Assembly: GCA_036556205.1 (NCBI GenBank) | Contig: DATBJW010000065.1 | Location: 4,285 to 68,284 of the forward strand | Length of the DNA: 64,000 nucleotides | DNA from: Gemmatimonadota bacterium | GTDB taxonomy: Bacteria > Gemmatimonadota > Gemmatimonadetes > JACCXV01 | Direction of reading: 5' to 3' | Shown here: one piece after another, positions 38,905-47,421 of the stretch | Layout of the letters: each line of letters starts with the position of its first letter | Position numbering within the stretch: position 1 is the stretch's first letter | Program-made: the position numbers and the translations under genes | Notes under the pieces: generated by a model | What the model saw: only the letters and a program-made list of their open reading frames with translations | Databases searched by the model: none | What the model was told of the DNA's origin: nothing

Positions 38905-39357
38905 TCACCCCGCCTGCTTCGACTCCCCGGGCAGCATCGCGGCGGCGCGAACCGGGACGCAGAGGTCGGCGACGGTGGTCCCGTCGAGTACGGCGAGCAT
39001 CGCCTCGCGGCTCCTCGCCCAGAGCCTCTTCAGGCCGCATGTCGGCTCGAACTCGCAGGGCACGTAGTCGAACGTGCTCACGCAGCCCATGGGCGCGATC
39101 CGGCCGTCGAGCAGCCGAATGACCTCGCCGGCCGTGATCGCCGAAGCCGGACGCGTCAGCCGATAGCCGCCCCCCACGCCGACCTGGCCTTCGACCAGGC
39201 CGCCTTCCCTGAGCGTGCGCAGGATCTGCTCCAGGTACTTGACCGGAACGTGCCAGCTCTCGGCGATCTCGCGGGCGGGGACGAGTCCCTGGCCCGCGTG
39301 GCTGGCCAGGTAGATCAGAGCCCGCATGCCGTACTCGCTCTTGGTCGACACGTTCAC
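38905..39357 (-). CDS. Rrf2-family transcriptional regulator (IscR/CymR-like) with three Cys
   Basis: STKSEYGMRAL, YLEQIL, GGGYRLTRPA, PMGCVS..VPCEFEPTCGL; AGGAGG RBS 8 nt before GTG 39357. Confidence 0.95.
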   Translation of the reverse strand: MNVSTKSEYGMRALIYLASHAGQGLVPAREIAESWHVPVKYLEQILRTLREGGLVEGQVGVGGGYRLTRPASAITAGEVIRLLDGRIAPMGCVSTFDYVPCEFEPTCGLKRLWARSREAMLAVLDGTTVADLCVPVRAAAMLPGESKQAG

Positions 39358-39417
39358 GTCGAGCACCTCCTGCGCGGGCGGCCTCCAGATTCGTCGGGCC
39401 GGGGCCGCGCCAGCCCG

Positions 39418-39522: not shown

Positions 39523-40612
39523 CTAACGCCCGCGGCCGCGCTGCTCGAGGACGCGCGTGAAGACCCCGTCGCGTCCGTAAAGGCTTTCCGTGACCCGCCC
39601 CCAGCCTCCCAGATAGTCGACTCGCCAGAGGTCCTGGACCGGCGGAAACTCCGCGGCGACCTCTCGCCCGACGTCGGGGTCCACGGGCCGCAGGCCGTAT
39701 TCGGCGAATGCGCGCTGGGCCTCGGGCGTTCGAAGAAAGTCCACGAAAGCCTGGGCGGCGTCCCGCACCCCGTGCTCTTTCGCGTAGACGTCCACCACGG
39801 CCGCGGGATTCTCGACGAGGATCGTCGAGCGCGGGATCACGTACTCGTAGGTCTGCCCCGCCCGCCGTCCCACCAGGACCTCGTTCTCGTAGGTCACGGC
39901 GACGTCCCCCAGACCCTTCTCGAAGGTCGTCATGGACTCGCGGGCGCCCTTGTCCATGATGGAGACGTTCCTGAACACGCGCGCGAGGAAGTCCCGGGCG
40001 GCGGCGGAGTCGTCCTTCGCCACCCCCTCGACCTGGCCGCGCAGGGCGGCCCCGTACATCGCGTTCACGTTCCACTGCGCCCCGCCCGATGTCTTGGGGT
40101 CGGGGGTCAGGACGTTCAGTCCGGGTCGGGCCAGGTCGGCCCAGTCCCGGATGCCCATCGGGTTCCCCTTCCGGACCGCGAGCACCACGATCGAGGTCGT
40201 GACCACGCCGGAGTTCGGCTCGGCCCGCCAGTCATGAGTGATCAGCCCGGCCCCGGCGATCCGGTCCAGGTCGGCCTGGAGGGAGAGGGCGGCCACGTCC
40301 GCCTCGAAGCCCTCGACGATCGCGCGAGCCTGCGCCCCGCTCGCCTGGTAGGACTCGCGGAAGACGACGCTCTGGCCGCTTCGCTCGCGCCAGAGCCGCT
40401 CGAAGGCCGGCAGAATGGAGTCGCGATAGGCCTCGCGGGGCGTCGTGTAGGCGCCCAGGATCAGCGTGACCTCGCCGTCGGCGCGCGACGCCCCGCGTTC
40501 CGAGGGGGGGTTCCCCCCGCACCCGGCGAGCAGCAGTAGCGCTGAGAGGAAGAGGGCACACGAAGCGGGCGGCGGCGCGCTCGGCGAGCCTCCGCGATCG
40601 CGATCGCGGCAC
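39523..40612 (-). CDS. Sulfate-binding lipoprotein, copy 2 (5' end anomalous)
   Basis: LLLLAGC lipobox, TLILGAYTTPREAY, SYQASGAQARAIVEGFEADV, TPDPKTSGGAQWN; no in-frame canonical start near the lipobox. Confidence 0.85.
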
Positions 40613-40709
40613 CGATACGCCTGCCGGATTCCCTGCCACGGTGGAACCGTGCGGGCAGATGCGCGACCGCCGTCCGGTACGACGACGATTGCCGGGGTGG
40701 GGCGATCCG

Positions 40710-41945
40710 TCAGCCCACCACCTTCGCCCCGGGCTCGGTGCGGAGCGGGTAGTGCGGAAGGAGCCGGTAGTCCTTGAGACCCACCATCACGTCGTCGCCG
40801 GGGGAGAGCTGCATCTCGCCCGCCTCCCACTTCGTGCGGCTCACCGTGATCGGCAGGCCGCCCACGTAGACCTCGGAGCCGTCGGCCGCGGCGGGCCGCC
40901 CGGAGACGGTGGGCCGCCGCGGCGAGAACGTGAGCCGCACGACCAGCCGCTCCGCGGGACCGACGTAGGAGACGCCCTCCACCACGCCGTGCCCGAGGTG
41001 ATGAGGGGTGCCGAGCAGCGGGGCCTCGAAGTTGAGCACCACGTCCTCCGGCCGGAAGACGACCTTGACGGCCTGCCGGTCCTCCAGCACCGGCGGGTCC
41101 GCGGGAGGTCTCAGACGCAGCGGGCCCAGCGTGACCTCGTCGCTCCGCCAGCGCCCGAGCAGTACGTTGGCCGCGCCCAGGAAGGTGGCCACGAACTCGG
41201 TGCGCGGACGGTTGTAGACGTCGAACGGCGTGCCGATCTGCTCGATCCGGCCCTCGTTCAGGATGGCGATCCGGTCGGCCAGCTCGAGCGCTTCCTCCTG
41301 ATCGTGGGTGATGAAGAGCGCCGGCATCCGCGCCGACTGGAGGAGCGCCCGCACCTCGCGGCGCAGCTCCGCGCGCGTGATGGCGTCGAGCCCGCTGAAG
41401 GGCTCGTCGAAGAGCATGGCCAGCGGCCGGATGGCGAGCGCGCGGGCCACCGCCACCCGCTGGCGCATGCCGCCCGAGAGCTGGTAGGGGTACTTTCCGC
41501 GATCGGCGCCGAGCTCCACGAGGTCGAGCATCCGGTCGACGCGCCGGCGGACGTCTTCGGCGGCCACGCCGCGCAGCTCCAGTCCGAAGGCCACGTTCTG
41601 CTCGACCGTCATGCGCGTGAACAGCGCCTGCTCCTGGAACACGATCCCGAACCCGCGCCGCTGGGGTGGCAGGGACGTCGCCTCCCGTCCCAGCAGCTCG
41701 ATCTCACCGGCTTCCGCCGTCTCGAGCCCGGCCAGCAGCCGGAGCAGGGTGGTCTTGCCGCTGCCGGAGGGACCCAGCACGACGAGCAGCTCACCCTCGT
41801 GCAGATCGAAGCTCACGCCGGCGAGCACGACTTGCGGGCCGAAGCGCTTCGCGAGATCGCGGACGCGGATGGGCGGGGAGAGCGCGGCGGTCGGACCGGG
41901 AGAAGAGGCCCCGGTCGCGATGTCGATGACCTCGATCTCGGGCAT
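40710..41945 (-). CDS. Second CysA-like ABC ATPase with TOBE-like C-terminus
   Basis: GPSGSGKTT, LSGGMRQR, FDEPFSGLD, ITHDQEEALELADRI. Confidence 0.88.
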   Translation of the reverse strand: MPEIEVIDIATGASSPGPTAALSPPIRVRDLAKRFGPQVVLAGVSFDLHEGELLVVLGPSGSGKTTLLRLLAGLETAEAGEIELLGREATSLPPQRRGFGIVFQEQALFTRMTVEQNVAFGLELRGVAAEDVRRRVDRMLDLVELGADRGKYPYQLSGGMRQRVAVARALAIRPLAMLFDEPFSGLDAITRAELRREVRALLQSARMPALFITHDQEEALELADRIAILNEGRIEQIGTPFDVYNRPRTEFVATFLGAANVLLGRWRSDEVTLGPLRLRPPADPPVLEDRQAVKVVFRPEDVVLNFEAPLLGTPHHLGHGVVEGVSYVGPAERLVVRLTFSPRRPTVSGRPAAADGSEVYVGGLPITVSRTKWEAGEMQLSPGDDVMVGLKDYRLLPHYPLRTEPGAKVVG

Positions 41946-41963: not shown

Positions 41964-42779
41964 CTACCGGCTCCAGCCCTGGGCGGGGCCGCGGGTGAAC
42001 TGCTCCATCTCCACGACGCCGCCCTCGACGTCCTCGAGGTCGAGGAAGTCGCGGATCTCGCGGCGCAGGTCCTGCTGGATCTCGTAGATCGAGCGGTTGC
42101 CGTCGATCACGCGGAAGTCGTAGTCCTCGGTGAGGTCCTCGAAGGCGTCGAGTAGCCGGCTCTGGTAGGCCATGAAGCTGTCGTAGGGGTCGGCGCCCAG
42201 GTTCAGGTCCATCCCGGCCTCCCAGTAGTCGATGCCGTCGCCCTGCAAGACGCGGCGGATCAGCGTGTCCGTCGGGACCTTGAGGTAGAGCACGAGGTCC
42301 GGCTGGAGCGCGAAGCCGTAGAGCGCCCGCACCCAGTCCTCGTCGATCCCGCGCACGCGAGCTCGCGCGAGCGCCGTGTACAGGTAGCGGTCGGCGAGCA
42401 CGATGAAGCCGGACTTCAGGGCGGGGATGATCTGGTTCTCGAGGCGGTCCGCGAAGTCGATGGCGTACATCAGCGTGAATGTGATGCGGTTCAGCTGGTG
42501 CCCCTCCTTGGCGATCTCGATCTCCTCGGCCATCAGCTTGGAGCGCGTCCAGCCCGTCTCGACCACGCCGAAGCCCTGCACCTCGAGCCATTCCCGGAGG
42601 CCCTTCATCTGCGTCGAGCGGCCGGAGCTGTCCGTGCCCTCGATCGAGATGAGCTTCCCGGTCAGGTCGCTGATGTCGATGTAGGGCAGTCCCTCGCCGA
42701 ACCAGGCGTGCGGCCGCGCCCGGCCAGGCGTGCGGGCGGACGGCCCGGAACGGGCGTCCATCCCGCGCGTTTCACTCAT
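41964..42779 (-). CDS. Thymidylate-kinase-like protein A (degenerate P-loop)
   Basis: ISIEGTDSSGRSTQ, DFADRL, IVLADRY, PDLVLYL. Confidence 0.85.
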   Translation of the reverse strand: MSETRGMDARSGPSARTPGRARPHAWFGEGLPYIDISDLTGKLISIEGTDSSGRSTQMKGLREWLEVQGFGVVETGWTRSKLMAEEIEIAKEGHQLNRITFTLMYAIDFADRLENQIIPALKSGFIVLADRYLYTALARARVRGIDEDWVRALYGFALQPDLVLYLKVPTDTLIRRVLQGDGIDYWEAGMDLNLGADPYDSFMAYQSRLLDAFEDLTEDYDFRVIDGNRSIYEIQQDLRREIRDFLDLEDVEGGVVEMEQFTRGPAQGWSR

Positions 42780-43509
42780 CGTGGTCCCTCCCCGTCTCGC
42801 GCAGCATATCGCTCACGATCTCGCGCACCTCCTGCTGCTGGTCGTCGATCTCGAGCGTGGCGTCGATCACGCGCAGACCGAACTCGTCCACCATTTGGTC
42901 GTACTCGTCGATGATGCGGCCCTGGAAGAGCTTGAAGGACTCCAGGATGTCTTCCGACAGGTGCATGTCCATGCCCGCCTCGTGGTACTTGATCTTGGCC
43001 CGGCCGCGGAGCAGCCGCGCGAGCGAGATCTCGACCGGCACCCGGAAGTAGAACGCCACGTCGGGCCGCACCGCGAAGCTGTAGAGCTCGCGCACCCAGC
43101 GGGGGCTCACTCCACGGGCCACATCGCGGCCGAAGGCCGTGAACGCGTATCGGTCGGCGAGCACGATCATGCCCGCCTTGAGGGCGGGAACGATCTTGAA
43201 GGTGAGCCGGTCGGCGAAGTCGGTGGCGTGCAGCAGGCTGAAGGTGGTGGGGGTGAGCAGGTCCTTCTTCTTGCCCATCCGCGTGGCGTTCTTCACGAGC
43301 GTGGACGAGTTCCACTCGGTGAAGAACGCGCGAAACCCGCGGGCCTGAAGCCAGCGCTGGAGCAGCACGAGCTGGGTGGACTTGCCGGACCCGTCGATGC
43401 CCTCGACGATGATCAGGCGCCCGGGGTAGGGGTGCGGCTCAGCCAGCTTGGAGGCCGGGCTCGGCAGCGGCCAGGACTTCGCCGGCGCGCTCGGCATCGG
43501 GAGCTTCAT
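42772..43509 (-). CDS. Thymidylate-kinase-like protein B
   Basis: IIVEGIDGSGKSTQ, FTEWNSS, HATDFADRL, IVLADRY, RPDVAFYF. Confidence 0.88.
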   Translation of the reverse strand: MKLPMPSAPAKSWPLPSPASKLAEPHPYPGRLIIVEGIDGSGKSTQLVLLQRWLQARGFRAFFTEWNSSTLVKNATRMGKKKDLLTPTTFSLLHATDFADRLTFKIVPALKAGMIVLADRYAFTAFGRDVARGVSPRWVRELYSFAVRPDVAFYFRVPVEISLARLLRGRAKIKYHEAGMDMHLSEDILESFKLFQGRIIDEYDQMVDEFGLRVIDATLEIDDQQQEVREIVSDMLRETGRDHDE

Positions 43510-45037
43510 CGGGCCTCTCCAGCTTGAATTCGGGCTCGGCCTCGAAGGCCAGCTCGAACAGATCGGATTTCCGACGCGCTCCCCAGAGCTCGATCTCCGC
43601 GTCGTGCCAGCTCAGCACGTGGAAGGTAGCCCGCCCGTCTTGAACCTGGCAATGCACGGCCTCCACGACCTGGTTGTGGCCGCGGTCCAGGCCGTCGGCG
43701 ATGCGCAAGAGCGCGGCGAGAACGCGCACCCGGCGCTGGTCGCCCTTGCGCAGGCGCGCGAACTCGGGGTGCCCCGCTCGCGGGAGCGACTTGCGGTGGT
43801 AGCGCGCCACGTTCGCGACGATCTCGATCTCGCGGGCCGTGAAACCGCGCAGACCGCCGTGCACGATCAGGTAGTAGGAATGGCGCTGGTGCCGGCGGTG
43901 CTCCACGTGGAGGCCGACGTCGTGGAGCACGGCGGCGACGTGGAGGAGCTGCCGGCATTCGGGCTCGAGCCCGTGCAGAGGTGCGAGGTCGTCGAAGAGC
44001 TCGAGCGCCAGCCGGGACACGTGAGCCGCGTGCGCCGTGTCGCCCTGCGCGCGGTGCAGGAGCTCGTTCACGCTGCGGAGACGCACGTCCGGAAGGGCGT
44101 CCTCGCGCCGGATGCGGTCGCGGGCCCGGTCCAGGTAATCCAGGATCAAGCCCTCGCGTAGAGCCGCGGCGCAAGCGGTCAGGCTCGGCGCTCCCAGAGC
44201 TTCCAGGACCTCCTGCAGGACCAGGCCCCCCGCCGCGATCGTCGCCACGCGTCCTTCGTCCAGCCCGGGGACCTTGCGCCGCTCCGAGGCGTCCAGCTTC
44301 AGGAGCTTCTTCGTGAGCCGGCGGACGGCATCGGCGTCCACGACGTGCAGGTGCGTCTCGCGGCCGTTCTTGCCCCCCTCGAGATCCATGCGGGCGAAGC
44401 TCTCGATCGTGCCCGAGGTGCCGACCACGAGGTCCACGGGGGAGCGGGTGTAGGGGCCGCTGACTCGCGCCAGGGTGCGGCGGCAGAGCGTGCGCACGGC
44501 CTCCACGGACTCCGGAGAGGGCGGATCGCCCTCCAGGAGGTCGGCGAGGCGGATGTGGCCGAGCTTCAGCGAGTCCACGACGATGGGCCGCGGGCCCGCG
44601 CCGAGGATCAGCTCCACCGATCCGCCGCCGATGTCCACGGCCACGACGCGGCGGTCTCCGATCTCGACGTAGTGGCGGATGGCGCGGTAGATCAGCCGCC
44701 CTTCGTCCTCGCCGGTGATGACGCGCACGTGGATGCCGGTCCGGCGCGCGACCTCTTCGATGAAGTCGCCGCCGTTCGAGGCCTCGCGCACCGCGCTCGT
44801 CGCGACCGCCAGGACGCGGGACACCTCGTGCCCGGCGCAGATGCGCTTGAAGCTCGCGAGCGATGCCAGAGCGCGCTCGGCGGCGTCGGGCGCGAGACGG
44901 CGGCTCGCGAACTCGCCGCGACCGAGCTGCACCATCTCCTTCTGGCTGTCGAGGATGCGGAACGAGCCGTCGGGCCGGAGCTCGGCCACGATCAGGTGCA
45001 CCGAGTTCGTGCCGACGTCGATGGCGGCTACGCGCAT
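43439..45037 (-). CDS. ppx: Ppx/GppA exopolyphosphatase with C-terminal HD-like domain
   Basis: AIDVGTNSVHL, ATSAVREA, GEDEGRL, DIGGGSVE, GTSGT, ALREG, LHDVG, NVARYHR, RIADGLD. Confidence 0.95.
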   Translation of the reverse strand: MRVAAIDVGTNSVHLIVAELRPDGSFRILDSQKEMVQLGRGEFASRRLAPDAAERALASLASFKRICAGHEVSRVLAVATSAVREASNGGDFIEEVARRTGIHVRVITGEDEGRLIYRAIRHYVEIGDRRVVAVDIGGGSVELILGAGPRPIVVDSLKLGHIRLADLLEGDPPSPESVEAVRTLCRRTLARVSGPYTRSPVDLVVGTSGTIESFARMDLEGGKNGRETHLHVVDADAVRRLTKKLLKLDASERRKVPGLDEGRVATIAAGGLVLQEVLEALGAPSLTACAAALREGLILDYLDRARDRIRREDALPDVRLRSVNELLHRAQGDTAHAAHVSRLALELFDDLAPLHGLEPECRQLLHVAAVLHDVGLHVEHRRHQRHSYYLIVHGGLRGFTAREIEIVANVARYHRKSLPRAGHPEFARLRKGDQRRVRVLAALLRIADGLDRGHNQVVEAVHCQVQDGRATFHVLSWHDAEIELWGARRKSDLFELAFEAEPEFKLERPDEAPDAERAGEVLAAAEPGLQAG

Positions 45038-45205
45038 AGTGGAATGTAGGCCGCGGAGGTTACAAAACGATGCCGATCGGAGCGGATCGAGCTAGATTAC
45101 CTCCGATCGTCCCGGAAGGCGAGCGCGACCGCATCGCCGCCGCTCTCCTCGCCCGTCGTGCTGCACGACCCGGCAGGCTTCGGCTACCCAAGAAGAGCTT
45201 CCCCC

Positions 45206-46789
45206 ATGAGCGATCCGATCTCGACCACGGCCGGGCGCGGCCTCTCCTCTGGTGACGTCGCCGAGCCGCACGCCGCCCGGGTAGGGGCGCTCGCCGCACC
45301 TCTTCCGCCCCAGGCGCGGATGGAGAGCCTGCTGGAGGAAGCCCAGCGGCAGCTTCCCGAGGCCCTGGCCGGAGACGAGGAGGCCGTCCACGATCTGCGC
45401 GTCGCTCTGCGGCGGATTCGCGTGCTCGCCCGCGAGCTCGTGGACACCGGTGGCGGGCTGGCTGAACCGCTGATCGAGCTCGCAGCCGGGGCGACCGCGC
45501 TCTTCCGTGCGCTGGCCGGCATACGGGACCTGGACATCCTGGGCCACGAGCTGGCCGATCTGGCCGCCGCCGGGGCGCTGGGTCCGGCCGTCGACCCGAG
45601 CCTCGCGCGCTGGGTCGAGGGGGAACGGGCGCGGCTGCGCGTGGGAGTGCCCGACGCCGCGGCCTTCTTCCGTCAGGAGGTCGAGCGCTACTTGCTGGCG
45701 GCCAGGCCGCGGGGCACGGACCGGCCAGCGCGTGCCGCGGCCGTCCAGGCCCGTCGGCGGGCCCGACCACGACATGGAGGCCGGCGCCTGGCGCGGCCGG
45801 CGCGACGGCTCCTGAAGGCCTTCGATCGCGTGCGCCGCCGTCCCACGCCGCAGCGTCTCCACCGCCTCAGGATACGCGCCAAGTCGTTGCGCTACACGGC
45901 CGAGACCCTGGCTCACAGGGAGGCGGGGCCACTCAGGCGAGGCCCTGGAGCGGGTCTCGCCGCGCTTGAATCCGGCCTCAAAAAGTTGCAGGATGCCCTG
46001 GGAGCCGTTCAGGACGCGGCGATGGTCCTGGCGCGACTCGACGGACTGGGCGCGGCGGACACGCTGCCGCCCTCGGCGGTCGGACCGGCGCGGGTGGCCG
46101 CCGCTCGGGAGCTGGAGCGCCGCCGTGCGGCGTTCCTCGCCAATCTGGAGCTCGGCGTGTATGCGAACCTTTTGCACGAGGTGAAGAAGGTGGCAGCCAA
46201 ACAGGGGGACGGGACGGGGGGCGAAACGCGTGACGCGGCTCGCATCCCGCTCGAGAAGATTCCGGGGATCGGGCCCGCGAAAGCGCGGCGGCTCGCGGAG
46301 GCGGGGCTCGCGAGCCCCGACGCGCTCAAATCGGCCAGCCTCGAGGACCTGGCCGCGGTGAAGACGATCGGGACGCATCAAGCCAAGCTCATCAAGGAGT
46401 ATGTGGACGAGAGCGGAAACGGCGGACCCGTCGACGGCGACGGCGAGGTGGATGGGAAGCGCTTCGAGCGCACGCAGGCGGTGCTTGGACTGGGGGCGAC
46501 CGTCTCGGACTACGCGCGCACGCTGGCCGAAGAGCTGTCGCGACACGAGGAAGGCGACACGGTCCGCGCGGGGCGCCAGGCCGAGCGGCTGGCCGATGGG
46601 CTCTCCGCGCTGTCCGACCGTCTGAACGAGGTCTCCTCGAAGCGACTGAAATCCTTGCGCGCCGAGCTGCGCGAGACCGAGGGGCTGCTCGCCAAGGTCC
46701 TCGACCTCGAGACCTCGAGCCTCAAGATGAACAAGCTGCGGAAAGCCTTGAAGACACACCGCAGGGCCATCGAGAGCTATCTGGGCTGA
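45206..46789 (+). CDS. CHAD-domain protein fused to a helix-hairpin-helix module and a helical C-terminal domain
   Basis: EEAVHDLRVALRRIR, IRDLDI, LHRLRIRAKSLRYTAE, LQDALGAVQD (CHAD); IPGIGPAKARRLAEAG..LAAVKTIG (HhH). Confidence 0.85.
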   Translation: MSDPISTTAGRGLSSGDVAEPHAARVGALAAPLPPQARMESLLEEAQRQLPEALAGDEEAVHDLRVALRRIRVLARELVDTGGGLAEPLIELAAGATALFRALAGIRDLDILGHELADLAAAGALGPAVDPSLARWVEGERARLRVGVPDAAAFFRQEVERYLLAARPRGTDRPARAAAVQARRRARPRHGGRRLARPARRLLKAFDRVRRRPTPQRLHRLRIRAKSLRYTAETLAHREAGPLRRGPGAGLAALESGLKKLQDALGAVQDAAMVLARLDGLGAADTLPPSAVGPARVAAARELERRRAAFLANLELGVYANLLHEVKKVAAKQGDGTGGETRDAARIPLEKIPGIGPAKARRLAEAGLASPDALKSASLEDLAAVKTIGTHQAKLIKEYVDESGNGGPVDGDGEVDGKRFERTQAVLGLGATVSDYARTLAEELSRHEEGDTVRAGRQAERLADGLSALSDRLNEVSSKRLKSLRAELRETEGLLAKVLDLETSSLKMNKLRKALKTHRRAIESYLG

Positions 46790-46851: not shown

Positions 46852-47421
46852 ATGGCCGTCTCCGCTCGCAACCGGGCCTACATCCAGCTCGCCGTACTCC
46901 ACTTCGGGCTGCCGCAGGACTACGTCGGGATCGTCCTCGGCGCGATCCGGGACTACCTCTCCCGCAACGGGCATCTTCGGCCCTTCCTCGAAGAAGACCT
47001 TCAGGATCTGGCGATCGACCTGATGCTGGAGCTCGGATGCGGGCCCTGGCAGAACGGTCGCGGCGAGTCCATCGACAGCGGCGCCACGGAGGGCATGCGC
47101 TACTTCAAGGTCGCTCTACGCAACCGGCTCACGAACTACGTGACCCGCGAGCTGCCGACCGAGCCGCACGAGTCGTATGACTCGCTCCCCGAAGAGCTGC
47201 CCGACCCGAGCACCGGCGACGCGGAGCTTCCCACGGTGGGCGAGATCCGGGACGCAATCCGGCGGTTGGGCTTCGTGGACCGCGTGGTCGTGACCTACAT
47301 GACCGAGGGCCTCAACCAGCGCGACATCGCGCGCATCACCGGCCTCTCGAAGAGCAACCTGAACCGCCGAGTCCAGCACATTCGCGCGACGCTCTCGCGC
47401 ATCCTCCAGTACCAGCCCTGA
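46852..47421 (+). CDS. Divergent ECF-like sigma-70 family factor
   Basis: EEDLQDLAIDL, YFKVALRNRLTNY, region-4 HTH GLNQRDIARITGLSKSNLNRRV. Confidence 0.7.
   Translation: MAVSARNRAYIQLAVLHFGLPQDYVGIVLGAIRDYLSRNGHLRPFLEEDLQDLAIDLMLELGCGPWQNGRGESIDSGATEGMRYFKVALRNRLTNYVTRELPTEPHESYDSLPEELPDPSTGDAELPTVGEIRDAIRRLGFVDRVVVTYMTEGLNQRDIARITGLSKSNLNRRVQHIRATLSRILQYQP

Follow-up and report, generated by a model that had tools for sequence, protein, structure and literature searches.

A gene cluster at positions 41,964 to 46,789 of the stretch analysed here (the window: 64,000 nucleotides of contig DATBJW010000065.1, from a Gemmatimonadota bacterium) raises the question of why two adjacent genes that read as thymidylate kinases, tmkB and tmkA, should lie behind ppx, a gene for an exopolyphosphatase-family protein, and divergent from a gene for a CHAD-domain protein. 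A sequence-only reading of this window had taken the cluster for an undescribed polyphosphate (polyP) module in which the products of tmkA and tmkB (A and B hereafter) form an active/pseudo-active heteromer that works on polyP and not on thymidine monophosphate (dTMP). We consider it probable, at roughly 0.85, that ppx-tmkB-tmkA is a bacterial operon for the family-3 polyphosphate kinase, PPK3, with B as the predicted catalytic subunit (cPPK3) and A as the predicted regulatory subunit (rPPK3). The module is not undescribed, however: Hofmann et al. named the family PPK3 (2024 bioRxiv preprint 10.1101/2024.08.28.610084; J Biol Chem 2026, PMC12995831) and predicted bacterial PPK3 operons from neighbourhoods with PPX and CHAD (PMC12995831). 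The basis for our assignment is orthology, synteny, the pattern of motifs, a separate canonical tmk in the same genome and the lack of PPK1. The parts of the locus are these:

43439-45037, minus strand: ppx, the first gene of the operon, encoding a 532-aa Ppx/GppA-family exopolyphosphatase with an HD-type domain III.
42772-43509, minus strand: tmkB (cPPK3), encoding the 245-aa predicted catalytic subunit of a family-3 polyphosphate kinase.
41964-42779, minus strand: tmkA (rPPK3), encoding the 271-aa predicted regulatory or scaffold subunit.
45206-46789, plus strand: the CHAD gene, divergent from ppx, with an alternative GTG start at 45158.
45038-45205, no strand assigned: the intergenic stretch from which ppx and the CHAD gene diverge, presumed from position alone to carry promoters in both directions.

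The list of open reading frames (ORFs) gives all four genes and both overlaps that the sequence-only reading had described. The ppx and tmkB genes share 71 nt, and the tmkB ATG at 43509 is preceded by the Shine-Dalgarno sequence GGAGAGG; tmkB and tmkA share 8 nt (ATGAGTGA), an overlap that holds the tmkA start and takes in the tmkB stop, with GGGAGGG preceding it. Every motif quoted in the earlier reading was also found in the translations of A and B. B has the P-loop GIDGSGKST, together with FTEWNSS, GKKKDLLTP and DRY; A has GTDSSGRST, in which the P-loop lysine has become arginine, together with ETGWTRS and DRY. The dTMP-binding R-E-P motif is replaced in both proteins, with TEWNSS (B) and TGWTRS (A) aligning with TREPGG of a true Tmk. 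A and B are themselves paralogues, with 41% identity.

In Sulfolobus acidocaldarius, two 'thymidylate kinases' encoded beside ppx, Saci_2019 (cPPK3) and Saci_2020 (rPPK3), together constitute a heteromeric, reversible polyphosphate kinase, an alpha2beta2 tetramer that preferentially makes ATP out of ADP and polyP (PMC12995831). Neither protein has dTMP kinase activity, the real dTMP kinase being a third paralogue, and Saci_2020 alone has no PPK activity, boosting that of the complex approximately ten-fold (PMC12995831). The proposal of an active/pseudo-active heteromer that works on polyP rather than dTMP has thus been demonstrated experimentally for the orthologous pair, and the sequence, tree and synteny of the window locus match it. 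B aligns with the Sulfolobus tokodaii cPPK3 homologue STK_15430 (PDB 2plr/5h70) at 194.8 bits (E 1.9e-56, 46% identity) and with real Tmks at no more than 53 bits, while A reaches 167.6 bits against the same chain and only about 53 bits against solved Tmks. We fetched ten Sulfolobales loci for comparison, and in all 10 the gene order is ppx, B-like gene, second gene. Their cPPK3 proteins are 45-50% identical to window B, and the products of their second genes score 101-133 bits against window A compared with 69-86 bits against window B.

A maximum-likelihood tree of 73 sequences places the canonical Tmks, including the one from this genome, on a separate long branch with 100% support. Window A falls inside a clade of A-types and Sulfolobales rPPK3 with 97% support in the Shimodaira-Hasegawa-like approximate likelihood-ratio test (SH-aLRT), and window B inside a B-type clade (85), beside which the Sulfolobales cPPK3 proteins sit, at the base of the PPK3 clade where the branching is not resolved. 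The canonical tmk itself lies on another contig, scores 137 bits and carries an ARDPGG motif. A plain Tmk identity for A and B was rejected on the motif, the tree and this separate gene. Neither protein matches the PPK2 profile (PF03976) in Pfam at E up to 0.01, and a PPK2 identity was rejected on that ground. The phylogeny sets A and B far from canonical Tmk and groups them with rPPK3 and cPPK3.

The association of the pair with polyP genes at this locus recurs in other genomes. A scan of species-representative genomes found a B relative in at least 559 species-level genomes, and the matches listed include Acidobacteriota, Nitrospirota, Binatota, Planctomycetota, Chloroflexota, Bacteroidota, Ignavibacteriota, Armatimonadota, Nitrososphaerota and others; an exhaustive profile-free search (E up to 1e-30) resolves the family into 343 clusters at 50% identity. 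Locus counts given here refer to the best 80 loci, with the window excluded. In 77 of the 80, A comes after B in the same orientation, and given that these loci come from many phyla, the arrangement is not due to chance. Of the 80, 55 have a Ppx homologue near the pair, which in 31 of them is immediately upstream and codirectional; 28 have a CHAD gene no more than 5 kb away (29 of 81 with the window counted). The CHAD survey was made with an iterated hidden Markov model (HMM), as tblastn with the window CHAD protein recovered only 6 loci; a few of the HMM hits are over-long ORF calls that are CHAD in part only, and Pfam confirmed the domain in 4 of 4 hits checked. Genes for PstB, PstC/A, PstS, PhoU and PhoB-like proteins recur in about 10 loci. 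Two proteins (P0139 and P0140) are likely to be true natural B-A fusions, which argue indirectly that the subunits touch. Five further apparent fusions (P0141, P0142, P0145, P0022 and P0144) were rejected, since stretches of Arg/Pro-rich junk in them suggest gene calls with frameshifts. In P0261 and P0271 (680-696 aa), two PPK3-like Tmk domains and a Ppx/GppA domain III (HD) are joined in one protein, a fusion which links PPK3 to Ppx.

The sequence-only reading had seen no ppk1 or ppk2 in the window, and this stands for the window. For the genome as a whole it stands in part, as PPK1 was found nowhere in the whole genome searched, which is 89% complete, and one PPK2 (223 bits) is present on another contig. 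Given that the genome has no PPK1, PPK3 is the likeliest polyP synthase here. Of 31 genomes from the order to which the window belongs, 16 carry the pair, 7 carry PPK1 and none carries both; the 7 PPK1 genomes all belong to one genus, so that statistically they are not independent. In the phylum at large the pair is rare (7 of 301 genomes sampled), which agrees with the patchy, horizontally spread distribution described for PPK3, the majority of PPK3 genomes also being without both PPK1 and PPK2 (PMC12995831). In 7 genomes of another related genus (G411, G412, G414, G421, G425, G427 and G429), a PPK2 gene is at most about 500 bp away from the pair, so that two polyP kinase families, PPK2 and PPK3, occur there in one cluster.

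If the locus does encode PPK3, a mechanism can be outlined. B would bind ATP or ADP at its normal P-loop and move the terminal phosphate to or from a polyP chain, which would presumably lie in a basic cleft where Tmk has its dTMP site. Its paralogue A would assemble with B to give higher activity. If it resembles the Sulfolobus enzyme, this complex would be reversible, with polyP made only when the ATP/ADP ratio is high and ATP regenerated from ADP and polyP under other conditions. Ppx would trim polyP to phosphate, the divergently encoded CHAD protein may bind or coat the polyP granule, and both PPK2 and PPK3 could be able to draw on the polyP.

Several points weigh against this assignment. 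The enzymology comes entirely from archaeal orthologues, and the bacterial pair is expected, by extension, to behave in the same way. At 89% completeness the absence of PPK1 from the genome is not absolute, and the presence of a PPK2 means that PPK3 need not be the sole polyP kinase. Finally, the DRX arginine, to the loss of which the inactivity of rPPK3 was attributed (PMC12995831), is kept in window A and in 97-99% of A-types.

This last point bears directly on what subunit A may do. Residue conservation was computed over 79 A-type sequences, in which D, R and Y of the DRY motif (R131 in window A) are each conserved at 97-99%; DGY occurs in 10 of 10 Sulfolobales rPPK3 proteins, and only there. 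Since A groups with rPPK3 by tree and by synteny, we treat loss of the DRX arginine as a lineage trait and not as a defining feature of rPPK3. With DRY kept, the predicted inactivity of A would have to follow from the Lys-to-Arg change in its P-loop and from the loss of residues that are conserved in B. The P-loop arginine (R54) is present in 77 of the 79 A-types (97%). A-types differ from B in having G76 for E65, R79 for S68, Y105 for H94 and D or N for K174. In B-types, K80 and R170 are conserved at 100%, K174 at 95%, K81 at 85% and K82 at 64%; A-types lack the K81-K82 lysines, these positions being variable, and have D or N at K174, the mapping of cleft residues being our own. A-types also have conserved residues of their own (G76, R79 and Y105 at 94-99%; E114, R139 and R143 at 91-99%), which argues that A is under purifying selection and is not decaying.

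The same observations may be read differently. Within a PPK3-like pair, A may be not a dead scaffold but a subunit with a working ligand site for ATP/ADP or for the end of a polyP chain, acting as an energy-charge sensor, a chain holder or a second, slow catalytic site. The conservation of its pocket has the look of purifying selection, and an arginine P-loop, GSGRT, is also found in 7 of 10 Sulfolobales rPPK3 proteins. Nevertheless, Lys-to-Arg substitution in P-loop enzymes generally abolishes phosphoryl transfer, and A is without basic residues that are conserved in B. The behaviour of Saci_2020 can be cited on both sides, as trace ADP formation was reported for it and yet it had neither PPK nor dTMP kinase activity (PMC12995831). 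On balance, we think a working site in A improbable, and continue to favour a PPK3 in which A is a predicted inactive partner of B.

The ppx product is recognised by Pfam as Ppx-GppA (214.5 bits) and Ppx-GppA_III (107.2 bits), and scores 263.7 bits against the NCBIfam model exo_poly_only, under its cut-off of 307. It falls under the trusted cut-offs of the exopolyphosphatase model and the GppA model alike, so that sequence alone does not fix its substrate. It might then be argued that guanosine penta/tetraphosphate or other nucleotide polyphosphates, and not long-chain polyP, are what the module works on, the Ppx/GppA protein serving as a GppA. The CHAD, Pst, PhoU and PPK2 neighbours point instead to polyP and phosphate, and the archaeal enzyme uses polyP with ADP (PMC12995831), making this a very unlikely reading. 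Least likely of all is that A, B or both are (deoxy)nucleoside monophosphate kinases, of the ordinary or an alternative kind, with an incidental link to ppx: Pfam (Thymidylate_kin, 76.7 and 76.9 bits) and NCBIfam label both as thymidylate kinase, B standing barely above the trusted cut-off of TIGR00041 (84.2 vs 83.25 bits) and A below it (80.9), and public annotations of homologues read 'dTMP kinase', but the R-E-P motif is replaced, a canonical tmk exists in the genome, Saci_2019 and Saci_2020 are without dTMP kinase activity (PMC12995831) and the ppx linkage recurs across phyla.

Returning to the PPK3 locus as we interpret it, its CHAD protein has an unusual architecture. Pfam recognises CHAD, a domain that binds polyP granules (80.3 bits), HHH_5 (41.4 bits) and HHH_2 (30.9 bits), the helix-hairpin-helix (HhH) lying at residues ~362-421 and being accompanied by a long C-terminal tail. 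A search of 5.8 billion proteins returned only 12 close homologues with this CHAD plus HhH architecture, and the HhH module is lineage-specific. Some of the 12 are encoded on contigs whose recorded lengths equal those of contigs bearing PPK3 homologues. The protein might link polyP granules to DNA. We also note, as a possibility that we hold to be unlikely, that the second subunit in bacteria and Nitrososphaerota is a working ligand binder, with its arginine P-loop and DRY serving an ATP/ADP sensor or a holder of the polyP end, that the explanation by DRX loss applies to Sulfolobales only, and that the CHAD-HhH protein might tie granules to DNA in this lineage.

Around the operon, a scan for promoters and terminators was uninformative as to its limits, and a consensus scan of 45038-45205 gave no sigma-70-like site. 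Downstream, a gene for an ABC-transporter ATPase (40710-41945, minus strand) starts 18 nt past the tmkA stop and is followed by one for a solute-binding protein, SBP_bac_11 (39523-40830, minus strand). No terminator-like site was found between tmkA and these two genes, which may be co-transcribed with the PPK3 operon, although the gene that comes next, for an Rrf2 regulator (38905-39366), suggests a sulfur/anion regulon. On the other side, the CHAD gene is immediately followed by one for a small protein (46852-47421, plus strand) in which only sigma-70 region 4 is recognised (Sigma70_r4_2, at the cut-off), ahead of an MlaE/MlaF-like ABC pair.

The survey also turned up PPK3-like domains in larger proteins. 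Three of these (P0298, P0326 and P0342; 1030-1276 aa) combine a transporter domain of the major facilitator superfamily with a PPK3-like domain (44-51% identity to window B) and a DUF2252/APH kinase-like domain, an architecture of which we know no description. Two giant polyvalent-type proteins (P0307 and P0333; 1610-2575 aa) have an inorganic pyrophosphatase (InPase) domain adjoining a PPK3-like domain, one of them with an ADP-ribosyltransferase domain as well, which suggests that the domain is used by mobile elements.

The PPK3 family, its heteromeric nature and the bacterial ppx/CHAD operons are already published. Set beside that paper, apart from its supplementary tables, the main additions made here are small, namely the arginine P-loop signature of the second subunit, the bacterial breadth of the family and the CHAD-HhH fusion. 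PPK3 is a polyP-making enzyme that fills a gap in organisms without PPK1, and the present locus is one instance of a family that is common among uncultured bacteria of soil and sediment and is still entered in databases as 'dTMP kinase'. This has relevance for genome annotation, for phosphorus-cycling models and for our view of polyP-accumulating bacteria. Mesophilic PPK3 enzymes are also on offer for ATP regeneration, and the conserved arginine P-loop of A provides a concrete mutational handle on the function of the second subunit.

How, then, does the locus compare with systems that are already known? With canonical Tmk (TIGR00041/PF02223), A and B have in common the fold family, the P-loop, DRY and the lid, and they differ in being without R-E-P, in lying apart from the fully supported long branch of canonical Tmks and in coexisting with the genome's own tmk. 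PPK2 enzymes are likewise kinases with a P-loop and transfer phosphate between nucleotides and polyP, and the two-domain class II PPK2, with its inactive N-terminal domain, similarly joins an active unit with an inactive paralogous one; most genomes with the A/B system encode its two units as separate polypeptides, and no Pfam PPK2 match is seen. The PPK3 of S. acidocaldarius shares with the window the ppx, c, r order of adjacent Tmk-superfamily paralogues with a CHAD gene alongside, a separate canonical dTMP kinase, the lack of PPK1 and the grouping of A with rPPK3, and B has TEWNSS, KKKDLLTP, the P-loop and DRY in common with STK_15430. The differences are that the window system is bacterial and mesophile-like with ~70% G+C, that its locus has no adjacent sixA, that its CHAD gene is divergent and HhH-fused, that PPK2 is also present in its genome, and that its r subunit keeps DRY whereas that of Sulfolobales has DGY.

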